The translations under genes and the position numbers were made by a program. Of a DNA stretch of 64,000 nucleotides, positions 931 through 40,168 are shown in pieces. The stretch is from the sequence record PX880101.1, one strand, 5' to 3'. How positions within the stretch are numbered: the first letter of the stretch is position 1; each line of letters begins with the position of its first letter. The notes below the pieces were generated by a model that was not told the DNA's origin, made no database searches, and was given only the letters and a program-made list of their open reading frames with translations. Source of the stretch: a phage.

Positions 931-3354
931 ATGAGCATGTGGTCGTTCGATTTTGAGTCATCCGGTTTGCTGGAAGACCCAGATCTTTATTATCACTGCG
1001 GTCTGTTTAAAGAGCTGAATAAGAACCGTTTTATGCTGTTCCTTCCTCTAAATGACCGCACACACTACTCCGAGGAGGATATAGAAAAGGCTAAGAACTT
1101 CATTCTGGCAAAGAAAACTCTTTATAAAGATTTTGAAGTTCGCATAGCAGATTTTTCGGAGTTGGAAGGTTGGCTTACAGGCAATTCCGACTGGTCACCA
1201 ACAGCTTTGAACTGCCATAACTGCTACAGTTATGACTTTATGCTGATGGAGAGATTGTCCGGTATTCATTTTGATATGTTCCGTGATCCTAAATGCATGG
1301 GGACTATCAACGACCACCAGGTTAACCTGTTTGATACGTTGGCGATGAGCCGAATTTTGTGGCCTGATCGCCCTCTACCAAAAGGTTGTCCGGACGCTGT
1401 ATTCAACCCGGTTACTAAGAAAATGCAGCCTGTTGGTCCTCACGGCCTTATGGCATGGGGCTACGCCCTTGGTAACCAGAAAGTTCAAATTGATGACTGG
1501 CGCGATCTTCCGTTGTGGAAGTATGTGGATCGTGTATTCGAGGACGTTATCATCCAGGAGCTGCTCTGGAAAGAGCTGGTAGCGGAATCAAAAGGTGTAT
1601 TCTACGGCAAATCTGACATGCAGAACTTTATGTACGATCCTGCCAAAGAGAAGCCGAAAGGGTTCAAGAAGATCACCTGGAAGAACGCATTACGCCGGGG
1701 TATGCTGCAGCACTTCCTGATGGAGCTGCAGGCCCGTCAGGGTGTATATTTCGACATAGATGGAGCTATTGCTTTACGTGACCGTTGTGATGCGTGGATG
1801 AAAGAGATCGCTGATCGTGTTGAACCTCAACTTCCTTTAAAAGAGTTGTCAATGTCTCAGCGGCCCAAGTTCCCTGAAAAGCCGTTTAACCAAGATGGGA
1901 CAATCTCCAATAATGGTTGGAAATGGTTAAAAGATAAGCTTGGCTATCCTGTGGACATGAGCGCTTTAGAGTTCAAAGCCCCACCTAAGCGAGCATTTAC
2001 CTCCACAGGGGATGTCAGTAAGATGGGGATAAAATGGTGTGAAGAGATGGGCTGTAAAGACCCTGATAAGATGGCTGATTTCTTGAGGGGCTATATTAAG
2101 GGCACCTCCACACCACAACCTTTACCTAAAGAGCTAATGGATCAGGCAATAAGTGATCTACAGCAGAAGCGAATGCCTGACTGCAAGATACCTATGAAAA
2201 TCAGCAATCAGGACGACATTAAGCGATACCTGATCAGTGCTGGTTGGCTTCCGACAATGTGGAGAACTAAGGATGTAACTAAAGACAGCAAGAAGAAAGC
2301 TCTACCTGATGCAGATGTTGATGCACGAGTATATGCATATATGGACGAGCTTTTAGAGTCAGAGTATTGTGACCTGATTATCAACTTCTGGAACAAAACT
2401 GATGCTAAGTTCCAGACAACCGTGCACAAGTTCCGAAGCTTTCCTAACTCCGAAAGGATTAAAAAGGAAGTATTCGGGAAAATACGTAGAAAAGCCAGGG
2501 CACTTATTACTTCTCCGCAACTGAAAGATACGTTTGGACACCTATGTCCGAATCTTGAAAAATTGAACGGAGAGATGGCTAAAGATATCGTCTTGTGGTT
2601 ATCCTTGCGAAACCGCAGATCGGTCCTTGATCCAATCAAGGAGGATAAGGTTGATACTGGTCTTCTTAATCACCCACGTTTGAAGATTGACCATAAGCTT
2701 CCTGCTAAAAGTTCTGGATTAACAAACACTTCCCGACAGAAACACAGTATTTGTGCGAACATGCCTAAACCATCTCCTAAAGTGGTTATGGGTAAAGAGA
2801 TGCGTAGTCTGTGGGGTGTTCCTCCAGGATACTTTGAGATTGGTATTGACGGGTCCAACTTAGAGCAGCTTATCGGGGCTTGGGGTGCCTTTGAGTTCGA
2901 CAACGGCTTGTATTATGATGTTGTAAGTAACGGGGACGCACACCAAAACAATGCTGAGGCATATACAAAAGTAGCAGGTAGAGAGGTGTCTCGTAACGAC
3001 GGTAAACCTATCACGTATGGGGTTATGTATGGGGCACAAAAAGATAAAGTTGCAGATATGCTGGACATCTCTCCAGAGTTGGGACAAAGGGTAATCGATG
3101 CACTCTGGGATGCCAACCCAGGTCTTAAGGGGCGCAAAGAGGATCTGGAGAAATTCTGGGAAGCAACAGGTAAGAAGTTTATCTACTCTTTTGATGGTCA
3201 TGCTATCTGGACCCGATCTAAACACTCTTTACTTAATGCATACCAACAAAATGGCGGTGCATCGTTGTGTGACTTAGTTGGAATACTCATGCACCACCAG
3301 ATGGTGAAGCGTGGGTGGTACGATGAAGGTGTTCGTCGTATTATTTATTACCAT
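931..3354 (+). CDS. DNA polymerase family A, exon 1 (3'-5' exonuclease plus polymerase motifs A and B)
   Basis: FDFESSG (Exo I), IDGSNLEQL (motif A), KPITYGVMYGA (motif B), NAYQQNGGASLCDL (helix before motif C); the unspliced frame ends IIYYH-K-stop at 3355-3360, before motif C is complete. Confidence 0.85.
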
Positions 3355-3630
3355 AAATAACATTGTGGCTTCATAGAGTAATCTATGTCGAATAACCTCT
3401 TTAACTGCGGGAAGCCTAAACCTTATGGCAAGGTAATCCGCAACGAAGCGCTCAAAAGAGCGAACGCTCAGAGGCCATTCCGAAAGGAAGTAGACCAGCA
3501 AGTGCGGTCGAAATGGGAGGATTCCTGTGGTTGCTTATCATAGGAATATGAGATGGTCCGATCCTACGTGAAAACGTATGGCTATGCACGTAAAGGTGCG
3601 GGGTAGCTTAACGACCTACCTGAACTATTG
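3355..3630 (+). other. Candidate group I self-splicing intron without ORF, inside the DNA polymerase gene
   Basis: Follows exon base U (3354) and ends in G (3630); GTGG at 3365-3368 can pair with exon end CCAU; GNRA-capped hairpins at 3372-3387 and 3478-3489; R-like UCAGAGGCCAU (3468-3478) and S-like AGAUGGUCC (3551-3559). Confidence 0.55.
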
Positions 3631-12581: not shown

Positions 12582-13598
12582 TACTTGAAAATTCCTGGCA
12601 TATCAAGTGTAAGGGGGATTTCTAAAATGGATTTCCTCCTTTTGATATTTCACCGGGCTGGATATTTTAAAATTCTTAGAAAATCAGAAAATGGATCGAA
12701 AACTAAAATGGATTTTTCAGAGTAGGCGCGACAAGCTGAATAACTCATCCTATCGTTTGCACCATATTCCAGGCCACCATTATAGATTTCCCACACATGC
12801 TAACCTCCCTCTACTAGAACTTCCTCCACTTGCCCTTAACCTTCTATGGTAACAATCTAACCACTATCTTGAAGTTGCGGTGCAGCTTTCCAAGTACTCG
12901 ATCTACTTTTCATTTCATGGCTTGGATTTTCTGAAAATTTTTCTCGATAAATTTCTCAGTACTCGATCTGTTTTTCGTTTTCTGAATCGGATTTTCTGGA
13001 AATCGTTCCGGATCTCGACCTGAAATTTTTGGGGACGAAATCGATTTTTCGTTTTCAGAAATGGATTTTTAAAATTTCTATATGGGAATATTTTATGGGA
13101 TACTGTTTTATAGGAAATTGTTACGGAGGGTAATTAGCATGCTAATTAAATTTATTAAATGCGAGGAGTTCTCATTTAGAATTTTGAATGATAATCATTC
13201 TCGTTTGCAGAATAACGGGCAGGCCCGGTGATTGTCTCCCGGCCCCTGTTGCCCCGGCTTGTTATTATAGTATCACACAGGACAAAGAAAGCAAGGATTT
13301 TTTGCATAAATTTTTAAATGATAATGATAACCGTTCTCATTTTATGCAGCGCCCATCCCCGGTGGTTGTCTCCCCCGTCACCGGTGCCTGCCGTCCTTTC
13401 GATAGGTATATTTTGCCACCTGGCGGGGCCGCTGTCAACACTTTTCAAAAAAAAATTTCTAACCTGATGCGCTGACCGCTGCAACCTGGCGGGGCCAGCC
13501 TGGCAGGGCCTAACTGACCAGGTAGGAGATAATGAAGGCTTGCAAACCTGGTGGGCCTATGCTATAGGATAGGTAACAATTGAAGAGGAGGTACAAAA
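12582..13598. repeat. Repeat-rich non-coding spacer (AAATGGATTT-type motifs, about 45-bp degenerate direct repeats, two about 60-bp tandem units)
   Basis: No convincing ORF; direct repeats read at 12620-12720, 12895-13075, 13185-13250 and 13313-13375. Confidence 0.55.
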
Positions 13599-20597: not shown

Positions 20598-20652
20598 ACC
20601 TGGCGGGGCCGAAAAGGCCCCCAATTATGAAAATAAAGAGAGGCAAATCATC

Positions 20653-23862: not shown

Positions 23863-24282
23863 ATGAACATTAAATCTAATAATCCGGCATATAGCTTTGA
23901 TAACGCTTTTTGTCACGGTCCGGCGGCGAAAGGATTCGAAATCGATGGTAAACTAATTATTGTCAATGTTGACGGGGAAGAGGTTGCAGTATATCCGGTG
24001 GCAGACGTAAAAAGCCGTTTACAATGCCGCATTGATGTTACCGCCTATCAGCTTGATCCGGTCCGCATAGTTGCCCTGGTCCTGGAAGAAGAAATTAAAG
24101 CCATGCACCATAGCAACAGATTTATTGGTGACGCGCAGGATAATATGAAAGTATGCCGCCATAAAGTTAATGAAGTGCTTAAAGAGTACGGCTATAAAGA
24201 TCTTATGATCAAACGTGAGGAAAAATTCCGCTACCGTAACGACCTGGCAAATCGAATCTATGAAATATACGAATCATTATAA
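23863..24282 (+). CDS. hypothetical protein
   Basis: TAAGAGGTAAAAACACC-ATG. Confidence 0.55.
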   Translation: MNIKSNNPAYSFDNAFCHGPAAKGFEIDGKLIIVNVDGEEVAVYPVADVKSRLQCRIDVTAYQLDPVRIVALVLEEEIKAMHHSNRFIGDAQDNMKVCRHKVNEVLKEYGYKDLMIKREEKFRYRNDLANRIYEIYESL

Positions 24283-24300: not shown

Positions 24301-24328
24301 AGGGGCTTTAAAAGGCCCCTTTCTTTTT
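24301..24328 (+). terminator. Rho-independent terminator closing the plus-strand early block
   Basis: AGGGGCTTT-A-AAAGGCCCCT followed by TTCTTTTTGT. Confidence 0.6.
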
Positions 24329-24929
24329 GTCTGTATTTCTCCTACCACAAACGGCCCAGCCTGGCAAGTGGAATAATTGACTAGCCATCAATCCCACACA
24401 CTGTACAAATATACATGGAAAATAACTATTGCATAATTTTTCATTGTGTGGTAGCAAGTCCATTTTTACCCGTTTTCTCTCTCAAAATTGCACGTAATGC
24501 CGCTATTGCACAAATTTTAACCTGATGCACATCTCCAATATCTTGTCAACAACTAAAAATCTTTATAAGTCATACACTTACACAGCATCGAAAGCGTGTT
24601 CTACGCGAAAAATCGAGTATAACTATAGCCGCCAGATCTCAGAATTCACGTACGCACGCCATTCTATAGCCTGCAAAGTATTTATTCCAACCACAGAATA
24701 ACGGAATAGTCAATACCTGCATAAAATAATTATTCGTGTAAACTGCATAACATAAATCAGCTCAGGTGTCAACATTTTTCGTAAACAGTCCGAAATTATC
24801 ACGATGAGTTATCATAAACAGAGAAATCTTTAGTCGTCTAATGTTTACTGTACATTACTATACTGACTGGAATCATTAGATGACTAAGAGAAAGATAAGA
24901 AATAATTAATAATGTAATTATTTTACCTG

Positions 24930-25240
24930 TAACAATAAGGCAACTATGCAAACGAATGGCATGGCGCGACGGAGTCGCGACATAATATAAAAGCAGTAAC
25001 CATCACCCCCGTGATAGTTTGTCTGCAATCTATTAATCAGATCATAGTTGCCTTGTATTCAGTTAATCATGACATAATAAGCAAGGCAACTATAGATCTG
25101 CTAATAGTTGCCCTGCTTTTATATTATGTCATAGAAACACCCGAAGGGGTGACCAAAGGTCACCTGGCATGGCCAGTGAAAGATTATTAACTTGTTAATT
25201 GTTAACTTGCTAATTGTTTTCATGCAAACGAATGTCATGG
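24930..25240. repeat. Cluster of inverted and direct repeats (GGCAACTAT in both orientations; 18-bp inverted arms GACATAATATAAAAGCAG; CATGCAAACGAATGNCATGGC direct repeat; palindrome CGCGAC-GGA-GTCGCG)
   Basis: Read directly from the sequence. Confidence 0.6.
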
Positions 25241-25249
25241 CTTATCCTA

Positions 25250-25330
25250 TCTGTGTAAACAGTTAAGGTGTAAACTATCCAGGCGTAAACAGTCTATGCG
25301 GGAACAATCTATACGTGAACAGTGAAACAT
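25250..25330. repeat. Iteron-like array: five or six copies of GT(A/G)AAC(A) at about 15-bp spacing
   Basis: tgtgTAAACAg, gtGTAAACt, gcGTAAACAg, gGGAACAat, cGTGAACAg, GTGAAACat. Confidence 0.55.
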
Positions 25331-26805
25331 GAAATAATAACAATCGTTATTGTGTCGAAAGTGTATAAGGTGTCATAGTATGTCAGACAAGTTTTTCTCC
25401 TCTTTGTCAAGTGCTGCATGAAAATTTACAAACTGGTATGGTAGCATTTTTGCGGCCCTGTTTACATTCAGTTGTGTATGTATAACCCTTGTTGTGTGGG
25501 CGTTTAGACGTCTGGACGGTTGGAAGTCTACAGGTCAATATCTAATCTATTGGCTGCTAACTATATCCCACACAAATAGTAAGAAATACAATTGTTATGT
25601 GAGTAAACGGTAACTCATGTTATCAATCCCTGTATGGATCGCCAGTGGTGCGCATAATGGGTATTATGTTAAATTGCCCGTAATGATAACTATTCTCACA
25701 ATGATAGGTATTCTCATTCACTCCCACAAGATAGGTTGCAAATGTTGTGCCACTGTGTGAACGGCCTCACCTATTAATTTGCCTCACTGCCTCGATATTT
25801 GAGAATTGTTATAAGAATGAGAAGTATTCCCATTTCGTCCGCCTGGCAGCACTCCAGTCGCTACCGCTCATGACAGGGCAGAACTGGGTCCATTCAGATA
25901 TTTCTGGCTGACTCTTCAGGTCTGTGTGGGAAAAGCCAACCTCTCCGGCGGGGCAGGGGTAGGTCAATTAAAAAATTTACGTGGTGTATGAAGAGCCCTT
26001 CAGGTAAGGCATGTATTATGGGATGAAACACCCTTCAGGCAATGATATTTGTGGGTGGGATATTTGCTGGAAAGCCAGATATGACGGGACTCCTGGCGGG
26101 GCAGGGGTAGTACAGACAGGGGAAATATGGTGGATGTAGTTGGGTGGATTGATCAGGCAGGTAGAGTATGGAATATGTTACAAGTATGTTAAATATGGAG
26201 GATGAATATCTGTAGGATTTGTGTGTAAAATCAAAGACTTAAGTGGTGTTGTGGTATTTTCTATAAATAATTCAAGTTTAATAGGTAATATTTGTCTCTA
26301 TCCGCTTTGTGTGGTAAACAAATTCAGATGGTGTTGGTTTACAAGTGTATACATAATATACAAATTAAAGATACAAGAAACCCCCCTCCCCCTTCGGCTA
26401 CCATTCACCTTTTCCTCTGACTGGTACTTAAACACTTATTCAGACTCTTCAGGTTATCACCCATATATCATATGGCAGTGACTGGTGTCCTCCGGCCCCT
26501 CTTTCGTCACCCGTCCGCTTCGCCATGCTAATGCCATAGCCAACGGTTCGGTTGTTCACCCTGTTCACTCAGGTGTATCTCCATACCCCTTCAAACCGAA
26601 GAGAACAGAAAACCCGAATTACTCGGTAAAAGAAAAGAGAAGAACTTAATTTTATCAGGATAGGCAAGAATGTCAAGGCATGACTGCTCACTAAACAAGC
26701 AAACAGTCATGTGTGGAAGGTAAGTGATTGTGGTGGTAGGAAATTTAGTTGAAAGATGTGTTATAGGTGCGCTTCCAGCACTTTAGCCGGGCAGCTAATT
26801 GTGTG

Positions 26806-27021: not shown

Positions 27022-27142
27022 AAAATCTCCTCTGGAAATGAGAGTGTGAACAGGGTTTTATACGTTCTAATGCACAGGAATTATACACGTTTTCCTCTTC
27101 AGGCCATGCTTTAGCATGAGGAACCTGTGTGGGCTCGGTGCT

Positions 27143-27355
27143 TCATAGTCTACCACCCCTGAACTCTTCGTGCTCAGGCATAATAGAGAACCAGATATCT
27201 ACGATGTCTTCCCACGTTAGGTCATCAGCCTCAGGATCTACCTGGAGCGAAGATGGAGAATCTTCAGAATCGAAGTTTTCCTCTTTCACTGGCTCAGCCA
27301 AGGGACATATAGTCACTCCTTTGGATGTCTCTTCAGATGCATGTGTGTTTATCAT
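27143..27355 (-). CDS. hypothetical acidic protein
   Basis: ORF in the minus-strand array. Confidence 0.45.
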   Translation of the reverse strand: MINTHASEETSKGVTICPLAEPVKEENFDSEDSPSSLQVDPEADDLTWEDIVDIWFSIMPEHEEFRGGRL

Positions 27356-39118: not shown

Positions 39119-40168
39119 TTAAGCTTCTTCGACAATCCCTGCACCCAGGATTTTTTCATTGAGCTCTTTTGCTGTTTTAATAATATTGTCCACCAGACGC
39201 TTGCGAGTCTTATCTTTTACCTTAACCTCTTCACCGCCGTTCAGGGTTGTCTTCAATTGGGACAGAATGTCTTGAAGTTCAACGACAGAGAATCGCTGCA
39301 GATCTTCTGAGGTAATCTCGCCTAAGGCAATCTTAACGGTCTCACCACTTTCCATCTGCAGGTTCAGGAACACAGTGTGAACATCACCTTTCGAACCACC
39401 CGCTTTTGCAGATTCAACAGCATGAACTAGCTCATCTAAAGAGGTGCACTGGTGAATCTCCGGAAGACCTGCTTCACCTAGCACACCTTCTTCATCACCT
39501 TTTGCCAAAAGCTTTTTAGGTTTTTGTCCGTTCTGGATGCGTTGTATGTTGCCTTCATCCAGAATGATAGCTCCAGTTCGAGCTGCCAGCTCCTCTCCGT
39601 CCAACCACACTTCGCCACCAGCTGTGATGGATGCGATCTCATCTTCTGTCAGCACCCAACCGTAGTATTTTTCGATCAGGCGTTCGAAACGTTTTTTCCA
39701 GTAGCTGACCTGAGTATTCATGTTCACACCATTGCCATAAGTGCCGCCTTGATAGTAGTGGAACATAAACTCTGTGTCCGGAGCCACAGTGCGTTCTTTG
39801 CAACCCAGCCATAGGATTGTTCCAGCAGAGCAGCACATCCCTTCAGCATGTGCAACAACGCTTGCCTGAGACTCGCGGAATGCCTGTAGATAAGCCATTG
39901 CAATGTGCACGCAACCCCCAGGGCTATTGATGATCACACGAATGCTTTCTTCCGGCTGAGCCATACGGATCGTCTGCAGACGAGACATATGATCCTGCAG
40001 GTCCTCCAAATCGTCGATATAAAGAACGTGGTCAACAACAGGTGTTGGGTAGCTGTATGTTTCCATAATACCACCCGGCATACCAAACATTTTATTACTC
40101 ATAGGTTCGAAACCGTTCTGTTTTTCTTTCATGCCGTGTACCATGGTGCTGCGAGGTGTTAAATTCAT
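39119..40168 (-). CDS. ClpP/S14-family serine protease with about 150-aa C-terminal extension
   Basis: VINSPGGCVHIAMAYL and GMCCSAGTIL (active-site Ser context). Confidence 0.65.
   Translation of the reverse strand: MNLTPRSTMVHGMKEKQNGFEPMSNKMFGMPGGIMETYSYPTPVVDHVLYIDDLEDLQDHMSRLQTIRMAQPEESIRVIINSPGGCVHIAMAYLQAFRESQASVVAHAEGMCCSAGTILWLGCKERTVAPDTEFMFHYYQGGTYGNGVNMNTQVSYWKKRFERLIEKYYGWVLTEDEIASITAGGEVWLDGEELAARTGAIILDEGNIQRIQNGQKPKKLLAKGDEEGVLGEAGLPEIHQCTSLDELVHAVESAKAGGSKGDVHTVFLNLQMESGETVKIALGEITSEDLQRFSVVELQDILSQLKTTLNGGEEVKVKDKTRKRLVDNIIKTAKELNEKILGAGIVEEA

Follow-up and report, generated by a model that had tools for sequence, protein, structure and literature searches.

What do short direct repeats do in a phage genome when they lie in DNA without any evident gene? 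The window, i.e. the whole 64-kb stretch of DNA analysed here (record PX880101.1), belongs to an rV5-like coliphage of the genus Vequintavirus, as judged from 3.4 kb around the repeats, which matched 122 phage records at 92–98% identity, nearly all of them Escherichia phages of this genus; the 401 nt immediately around the repeats matched 120 records at 86–95%. A first-pass annotation, made from the letters of the window, had described two pairs of direct repeats at this place and had taken them to be protein-binding sites or small structured RNAs. The locus thus raises the question of whether the repeats act as DNA, act as RNA or have no sequence-specific function.

Position of the repeats at the genome end

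The + strand genes of the window end at 24282 and are followed by a terminator-like hairpin (24301–24320), and the − strand genes start past approximately 26800. An ORF-free "non-coding" box has already been noted for rV5, and the curated rV5 record contains no ORF between the + and − strand genes, the repeat region included. Permissive annotations place ORFs of 30–60 aa in the gap, which vary from record to record, and mechanical ORFs of 42–54 aa overlap the repeat region in the window itself. The earlier statement that no ORF covers the repeats is therefore correct in substance but not to the letter. The idea of a small protein-coding gene was rejected, since indels of 1, 2, 17–20 and ~70 nt in the relatives break the frames of the mechanical ORFs and annotators disagree with each other. 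No tRNA or tmRNA was detected in the window. Phages 4MG, KB57, SSE-121 and CR3, from other genera of the subfamily, lack a non-coding gap after the regulator gene that they share with the window, and the arrangement is therefore genus-specific.

Terminal redundancies of 458 bp were described for the phages EdH4 and HdK5 by Korf et al. 2019. In the EdH4 record, the initial and the final 459 bp have the same sequence, which corresponds to positions 25843 down to 25386 of the window. A search with this block placed it flush with an end of the record in HdK5, Gotham, bov10K2, bov22_2, ECP2303 and EcoIv14a_Aya; it is present twice in HdK5, Gotham and 241Ecol014PP, and positions 1–459 of the Gotham record are annotated as a repeat_region. 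Vequintavirus genomes have been termed circularly permuted in two papers as well as in the rV5 paper. The statement of one paper together with the concordant shapes of GenBank records from several laboratories suggests that the rV5 "non-coding" box holds the physical ends of the virion DNA. The repeats under study are located 69–267 bp past the right boundary of the terminal repeat, in unique sequence, and are read here as sub-terminal elements of a linear genome (Table 1). The gene for the large terminase subunit lies ~44 kb from the genome ends; a packaging site beside that gene is therefore not expected. Published accounts exist of the box and, separately, of the terminal repeat. No earlier account was found in the literature of the repeats, of their location next to the end of the terminal repeat or of the CTCTTCAGG family and its conservation, and searches for transcript data on these phages were likewise negative.

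On the other (left) side of the terminal repeat, Tandem Repeats Finder detected 15-nt tandems of GTAAACAG at 25183–25218 and 25253–25323, and self-comparison revealed no repeat unit common to both sides. The G-rich repeats (G-boxes) share only CCTGGC with the cut site of the terminal repeat, a hexamer that occurs 34 times in the window, and this likeness was therefore discarded.

Table 1. Elements in and around the repeat region, with positions in the window.
Feature	Position	Strand	Remarks
Direct terminal repeat, 458 bp	25386..25843	.	Korf et al. 2019 and record ends; probable physical ends of virion DNA
Hypervariable junction just outside the terminal repeat	25844..25895	.	π 0.239
GATATTTCTGG	25897..25907	+	Left edge of a longer unit ending in G-box 1; almost invariant in relatives
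CTCTTCAGG copy 1	25912..25920	+	Core conserved; 69 bp from terminal-repeat boundary
G-box 1, GGCGGGGCAGGGGTAG	25947..25962	+	Exact match; 104 bp inside the boundary; indel hotspot
Invariant A/T-rich stretch, GTCAATTAAAAAATTTA	25963..25979	+	Right after G-box 1; 0 variable columns in 15 genomes
CCCTTCAGG, copy 2	25996..26004	+	CTCTTCAGG in all 14 relatives
CCCTTCAGG, copy 3	26031..26039	+	35 nt after copy 2; CTCTTCAGG in 14 relatives
GATATTTGCTGGAAAGCCAGATATGACGGG, imperfect palindrome	26059..26088	+	Just upstream of G-box 2; π 0.018
Four G-tract run around G-box 2	26086..26122	+	G3+ tracts, loops ≤12 nt; highest G4Hunter peak of the window (1.88)
G-box 2, GGCGGGGCAGGGGTAG	26095..26110	+	In all relatives with few substitutions
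Ultra-conserved block, candidate RNA of ~260 nt	26385..26641	−	Downstream of predicted promoter; context, separate from the repeats
CTCTTCAGG copy 4	26445..26453	+	Within ultra-conserved block
Predicted sigma-70 promoter, consensus-type	26649..26676	−	TTGACA, 16-nt spacer, TGaTAAAAT; 11/12 consensus positions
CTCTTCAGG copy 5	27095..27103	+	Conserved core

A predicted promoter with an extended −10 element (26676 to 26649), almost invariant in the relatives, is found ~800 bp from the terminal repeat and reads through an ultra-conserved block and then toward the repeats and the terminal repeat. The block has a diversity (π) of 0.011 over 26385–26700 in 15 genomes and an identity of 97.4–99.7% across 119 records, its variation being confined to two spots, one of which is a hairpin loop. 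In its predicted fold (z −1.53), the CU-rich 5′ end pairs with the G-rich 3′ end, followed by a U tail.

Conservation of the repeated elements

Diversity was determined from an alignment of 14 relatives with the window (15 genomes), and codon position 3 of the three flanking ORFs, with π of 0.108–0.110, served as the near-neutral yardstick. On this scale the terminal repeat has π of 0.051 and the repeat region overall 0.072.

The second repeat pair had been given as AGCCCTTCAGG(T/C)AA, present twice. Its core CCCTTCAGG does occur twice, at 25996 and 26031, but the longer form fits the first copy only, the second one reading ACACCCTTCAGGCAA. Comparison with the relatives revealed that CCCTTCAGG represents a locally altered form of CTCTTCAGG, a family with five copies: copies 2 and 3, which are CTCTTCAGG in 14/14 relatives, have both changed in this genome. 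The five co-oriented C[CT]CTTCAGG copies, spaced by 84, 35, 414 and 650 nt, are all found at most 1.26 kb from the boundary of the terminal repeat, three of them within 200 bp of it. Altogether nine C[CT]CTTCAGG sites are present in the window against 0.94 expected, five of them clustered in ~1.2 kb; EdH4 possesses five CTCTTCAGG sites in the 3 kb beside its right terminal repeat and one other in 100 kb. A genome-wide polar motif was considered as well and rejected: the strand ratio of CTTCAGG in the window (20:3) is the most skewed value among the 1,732 seven-mers tested, and the ratio is 11:9 in 100 kb of EdH4.

Across the 15 genomes, the five CTTCAGG cores are ~7-fold less variable than their 12-nt flanks (π 0.0076 versus 0.053); for the three copies in the repeat region, the values are 0.013 for the cores and 0.073 for the flanks. 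Judged by sequence diversity, CTTCAGG is the clearest conserved footprint of the locus and is better conserved than the G-boxes. Since the cores are so much more conserved than the DNA around them, it is plausible that they are protein-binding sites, as the first-pass annotation had supposed for the repeats in general. Each G-box is, moreover, preceded by GATATTT.?CTGG, which occurs in the window only at 25897 and 26059, and the piece at 26059–26088 is the most conserved one of the repeat region.

The 16-mer GGCGGGGCAGGGGTAG was confirmed as an exact pair, at 25947–25962 and 26095–26110, with a spacing of 148 nt. The G-rich copies had been placed at about 25944 and 26090, and they are indeed present, but 1–3 nt away from those positions (25945 and 26093 if the C(C/T) prefix is included). 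No further copy with up to three mismatches exists in the window, and none of 100 shuffles contained two or more matches to the 16-mer. A scan of IMG/VR returned 32 single-copy matches in unrelated contigs, most of them rich in GC, together with one contig of the rV5 type; these matches were judged to be approximately at chance level, and a wider spread of the 16-mer was not accepted. The exact pair was found in the window only, i.e. in 1 of the 15 genomes, but both boxes are G-rich in all 15, so that the G-rich repeat is conserved in relatives as regards its composition and not its exact sequence.

The two boxes differ in their variation. G-box 2 has π of 0.055, versus 0.018 just upstream, and is no better conserved than its surroundings; its variants comprise changes of the central CA to AT or GT as well as two single substitutions (G to T, A to G), and the sequence appears to be mildly constrained. 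G-box 1 has π of 0.140, i.e. at or above the near-neutral rate, and in the relatives it is represented by two haplotypes, GGCGGGGCAGGGG or GGCGGCGGGGAGG, with G-run lengths that vary among genomes. Directly after it, the relatives carry inserts of 0 to ~70 nt, of ~17–20 nt in 8 of the 14, and phage WM has a further insert of ~50 nt near the box that resembles a diverged copy of the local unit. Owing to this variation and to inserts as long as ~70 nt, G-box 1 at least should not be a strict recognition site, and a protein-binding role of the 16-mer is only weakly supported because copy 1 is at least as variable as the neutral yardstick.

What has been retained at the boxes is a G-tract character. 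On the + strand of the window, four G3+ tracts separated by loops of at most 12 nt occur in a row at 26086–26122 only, and this four-tract pattern is kept in 15/15 genomes, rV5 losing the first tract and gaining a different fourth one downstream. Within G-box 2 the tracts have π of 0.032 versus 0.082 in the loops, a nominal difference based on small numbers. The G4Hunter score at G-box 1 is 1.48 in the window and ranges from 1.40 to 2.36 across the 15 genomes. The strict quadruplex pattern (four G3+ tracts, loops of 1–7 nt) is absent from both strands of the window, and box 2 is a quadruplex candidate by a relaxed definition (loops ≤12 nt or G4Hunter >1.5, kept in relatives). In EdH4 (103 kb examined), GGGG-N1-2-GGGG on the same strand is found elsewhere in only one terminator hairpin. 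A small hairpin inside each G-box was dismissed as being no better than in shuffles (z −0.67 and −0.57).

The report that a related motif recurs at 13418, 13483 and 20598 was borne out, CCTGGCGGGGCC being present at 13419, 13485 and 20599. Searched as CCTGGCGGGGC(C), the motif is found at 13419, 13485, 20599 and 26092, together with a one-mismatch copy at 13499, all on the + strand and in excess of expectation (5 versus 0.28). The three distant CCTGGCGGGGC copies are intergenic, located in the early-gene region and kept in rV5 and EdH4; at 20605–20621, just past a stop codon, a GGGGCC-GAAAA-GGCCCC hairpin has the motif as its left arm.

Candidate functions of the repeats

The region thus combines three kinds of short element in one orientation, namely the five CTCTTCAGG sites, the two G-tract boxes and the conserved palindromic pieces before each box. 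The position of these elements by the terminal repeat, their clustering and conservation, the kept G-richness, the negative results of the RNA and coding tests and the T7-like architecture all point to signals in the DNA. We tentatively prefer the reading that the repeats are sub-terminal, cis-acting signals in double-stranded DNA for concatemer cutting and packaging. The terminase would find the concatemer junction, cut it at the repeat boundaries and package the genome using these sites. The CTCTTCAGG sites would provide sequence-specific contacts, and the terminase could use the conserved pieces around G-box 2 together with them to find and process the junction. In the G-boxes the G-tract character would matter, and not the exact sequence, through an unusual shape of the DNA and possibly a quadruplex; the identity of the 16-mers in this genome might then go back to an event confined to its lineage, for example gene conversion or a deletion at the hotspot. 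The partly related CCTGGCGGGGCC copies, far from the genome ends in early intergenic DNA, count against an end signal.

It is possible, if rather doubtful, that the G-boxes have no sequence-specific function and are by-products of a genome end prone to recombination and slippage, with the exact pair being a recent accident of one lineage. Local duplications, deletions and gene conversion beside the terminal repeat would then create and erase repeats. The near-neutral or faster variation of G-box 1, its G-run changes, haplotypes and inserts, the one in WM resembling a local duplicate, and the restriction of the exact pair to a single genome would all be expected on this account. Just outside the terminal repeat, the hypervariable junction consists of two deeply diverged haplotypes and contains a 34-nt duplication-like insert in two genomes. 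Evolution of the two copies is not concerted either: CA of copy 2 has become AT in ev146 and WM and GT in NHEP1, and because copy 1 has not changed accordingly, the copies are not generally homogenised. The 160-nt halves of the region are weakly alike once the 16-mer is removed (p ~0.065); an ancient 160-nt tandem duplication was rejected on this weak support. Nevertheless, the G-richness and the four-tract pattern persist in 15/15 genomes despite the turnover, and the clear constraint on the CTTCAGG cores, on 26059–26088 and on 25963–25979 argues that the region overall is not junk. The by-product explanation concerns the G-boxes only and leaves the CTCTTCAGG family uncovered.

Regulatory or replicative sites in the DNA, i.e. 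operators through which a phage or host factor would control early transcription from promoters within or close to the terminal repeat, or an origin with an R-loop or a quadruplex on the G-rich strand, are unlikely. Direct and inverted repeats abound in the surrounding gap, along with tandem 15-mers and Fur-box-like 18-mers, as might suit such sites, and the two highest G4Hunter peaks of the window are found here, one at 26098–26122 and the other, C-rich, at 26381–26405. Regular iteron spacing is absent at the repeats, however, and there is no initiator gene. Changes of GC skew and AT skew have been noted at this place for rV5, but they coincide with the switch in gene orientation. Promoter-like sites occur nearby on both strands, yet all of these promoters are putative, and no + strand gene follows downstream for ~38 kb.

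That the repeats act as RNA is improbable. They would have to be part of a + strand transcript from the terminal repeat or of − strand read-through from the 26676 promoter, serving for example as decoys that divert a defence nuclease of the host, the role of pseudo-ToxI in phage PhiTE. This idea is consistent with the strong predicted promoter that reads toward the locus, with the indel-prone nature of the latter and with the phage PhiTE, a related member of the subfamily, which carries an expanding and contracting intergenic repeat RNA; a 35-nt spaced pair at 25988 and 26023, 80% alike over 20 nt, might also be cited, and it is the only such pair. The candidate RNA from the 26676 promoter, however, appears to end in a helix and a U tail at about 26375, before the repeats are reached. 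No excess of fold stability over shuffles was found for the 251 nt at 25890–26140 (z −0.31 on the + strand and +0.08 on the − strand). RNAalifold on the 15 genomes, in which power is limited by their 86–95% identity, yielded compensatory changes in 0 of 109 pairs (+) and 1 of 62 (−), with covariation terms of −1.43 and +0.07, respectively. Rfam gave no match in 25400–26800, whether its gathering thresholds were applied or E values up to 5 were allowed. The structured RNAs proposed from the first inspection thus find no support in these tests. Tandem Repeats Finder detected no tandem array in 25844–26300. Searching 5,426 E. coli genomes with blastn gave no match to the repeats, the sole match being to a 46-nt stretch elsewhere (E 0.01), and the only match among PLSDB plasmids was a mislabelled phage genome. 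A mimic of a type III antitoxin, comparable to pseudo-ToxI, was rejected for want of tandem units of ~34–45 nt and of a counterpart in E. coli or plasmids.

Phage typing, biocontrol and therapy collections make wide use of vequintaviruses, whose genomes have been deposited in arbitrary orientations. With the ends of the virion DNA placed inside it, the hitherto unexplained "non-coding" box of rV5 would acquire a role. The CTCTTCAGG sites, 26059–26088 and G-box 2 are candidate packaging signals, which may be relevant to the engineering and rebooting of such phages; the repeats themselves challenge no current idea.

Comparison with known systems

One comparable locus is pseudo-ToxI of PhiTE, which consists of near-identical 36-nt tandem units copying a host antitoxin RNA (Blower et al. 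2012, PMC3475682). Both loci are intergenic, bear repeats, are prone to expansion and come from the same subfamily (Vequintavirinae), but the locus studied here has neither a tandem array nor a host counterpart nor an RNA signal.

With regard to packaging sites, the repeats resemble those of lambda cosB in that several copies of a short site are located within ~200 bp of a terminase cut, on the DNA side beside it. In lambda, the R1–R3 sites of cosB are bound by the small terminase subunit, and the genome has cohesive ends without any duplicated terminal repeat. The duplicated terminal repeat distinguishes the present phage from lambda, and no sequence similarity was found.

In herpesviruses, whose terminase is of the same broad lineage, the pac1 and pac2 signals have G-tracts that flank an A/T-rich element ~30 bp from the end. 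A variable G-box followed by the invariant GTCAATTAAAAAATTTA may be likened to this arrangement, but the motifs here are 100–270 bp beyond a 458-bp repeat. A packaging module can be envisaged in which the G-tract boxes, possibly as quadruplexes in DNA opened by transcription from the conserved predicted promoter nearby, and the CTCTTCAGG sites would mark the junction for the terminase and prime the duplication of the 458-bp repeat; such a module, coupled to the ultra-conserved RNA of ~260 nt, would be the bacterial-virus counterpart of the herpesvirus G-tract pac signals, and we consider it very improbable.

The architecture most similar in its position is that of the SRL and SRR arrays of T7, which likewise consist of co-oriented short repeats in non-coding DNA and begin only tens of bp away from a terminal repeat that is short and direct. 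In the T7 sequence, a CCTAAAG array is present at 175–341 beside the 160-bp terminal repeat, with the A0 host promoter directed leftward at 224, and phiOR at 39229 reads toward the right repeat from ~550 bp away; in the present phage, the conserved sigma-70 site on the − strand is a candidate for a promoter of this orientation. The phage studied here is a 136-kb myovirus with host-type promoters, whereas T7, a podovirus, has an RNA polymerase of its own. To our knowledge, the role of the T7 arrays is poorly defined. T7 has ~12 copies of one heptamer with a 13-nt period, in contrast to a pair of G-boxes spaced by 148 nt and, close to them, three irregularly spaced members of the CTCTTCAGG family, and related repeats flank both sides of its terminal repeat, whereas the 15-mers on the left side here are unrelated to the repeats on the right. 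Copy number, period and two-sidedness thus do not match those of T7, but the position does, and the region may at most loosely be regarded as a T7-type array.

Two repeat copies changed in this genome

At two neighbouring sites, 25996-26004 and 26031-26039, which represent the second and third copies of the five-copy CTTCAGG-core family located to the right of the terminal repeat, CTCTTCAGG is replaced by CCCTTCAGG in this genome alone, and each of the two replacements is accompanied by a C-to-A change nearby. The double switch could be the outcome either of parallel change or of a single recombination patch.

An ultra-conserved block on the minus strand

The block at 26385-26700 (minus strand) is ultra-conserved, its diversity across the studied stretch and 14 aligned relatives (pi) being 0.011 vs 0.11 at neutral sites, i.e. 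at the third codon positions of the flanking ORFs. It was found in Vequintavirus only, in 119 records at 97.4-99.7% identity. In the predicted fold, the CU-rich 5' end is paired with the 3' end, which is G-rich and runs into a U tail; the sequence variation is limited to two spots, one of which is a hairpin loop. A search of Rfam with the block gave no match. The block is considered a candidate RNA of approximately 260 nt; the promoter and the palindrome adjoining it are listed in the table together with the remaining features.

Features located in the 64,000-nt stretch
Feature	Coordinates	Strand or orientation	Remark
Group I intron	3345-3580		Rfam RF00028, 64.7 bits, E 4e-14
AATGATAACTATTCTCA-like boxes	13320-13338, 25682-25716, 25816-25832
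CCTGGCGGGGCC family	13419-13510, 20599-20621	all copies co-oriented with transcription	early intergenic DNA
Imperfect palindrome, 58 nt	24830-24887
Perfect inverted repeat, 18 nt	24937-25130		copies at 24979 and 25113
Inverted repeat, 51 nt	25133-25183, 27282-27332		76% complementary
Tandem 15-nt repeat ATTGTTAACTTGCTA	25183-25218		2.4 copies; just left of terminal repeat
Tandem 15-nt repeat, GTGTAAACAGTCAAG-like	25253-25323		~5 copies; just left of terminal repeat
Putative promoter of consensus sigma-70 type with extended -10 element	26676-26649	-	directly upstream of ultra-conserved block
Palindrome, 33 nt	26679-26711		just upstream of -35 element of the 26676 promoter

The terminal repeat and its surroundings

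The 458-bp direct terminal repeat (25386-25843), positioned inside the box labelled 'non-coding' by the rV5 paper, marks the physical genome ends. Many public Vequintavirus records are opened at other positions and called circularly permuted. Furthermore, 18-19 MG0656xx records labelled 'Campylobacter phage', as well as the 137.5-kb E. coli 'plasmid' record CP057073.1, are Vequintavirus genomes by sequence, and all of them are probably mislabelled or contaminated.

The terminal repeat is hypervariable on both flanks. The right one (25844-25895) exhibits a pi of 0.239 and two deep haplotypes, with a 34-nt duplication-like insert present in the related phages phita32 and EI-SP-GF, while numerous indels are found in the left one (25150-25385). 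The 15-nt tandem repeats on the left side form a repeat set other than that on the right. Four AAGGCAACTAT arms are located between the copies of the 18-nt inverted repeat, and the 51-nt inverted repeat brackets the terminal region with a distance of 2.1 kb between its arms.

Early-region repeats and Fur-box-like sequences

The CCTGGCGGGGCC copies of the early region are kept by both rV5 and EdH4. Those at 13485 and 13499 are arranged in tandem, the period being 14 nt, and at 20605-20621, 3' of a stop codon, the motif forms the hairpin GGGGCC-GAAAA-GGCCCC.

The AATGATAACTATTCTCA-like boxes are similar to the Fur box of E. coli. Two of the copies are situated within the terminal repeat, where they adjoin promoter-like sites, and the box at 13320-13338 agrees at 16 of 19 positions with the Fur-box consensus GATAATGATAATCATTATC.
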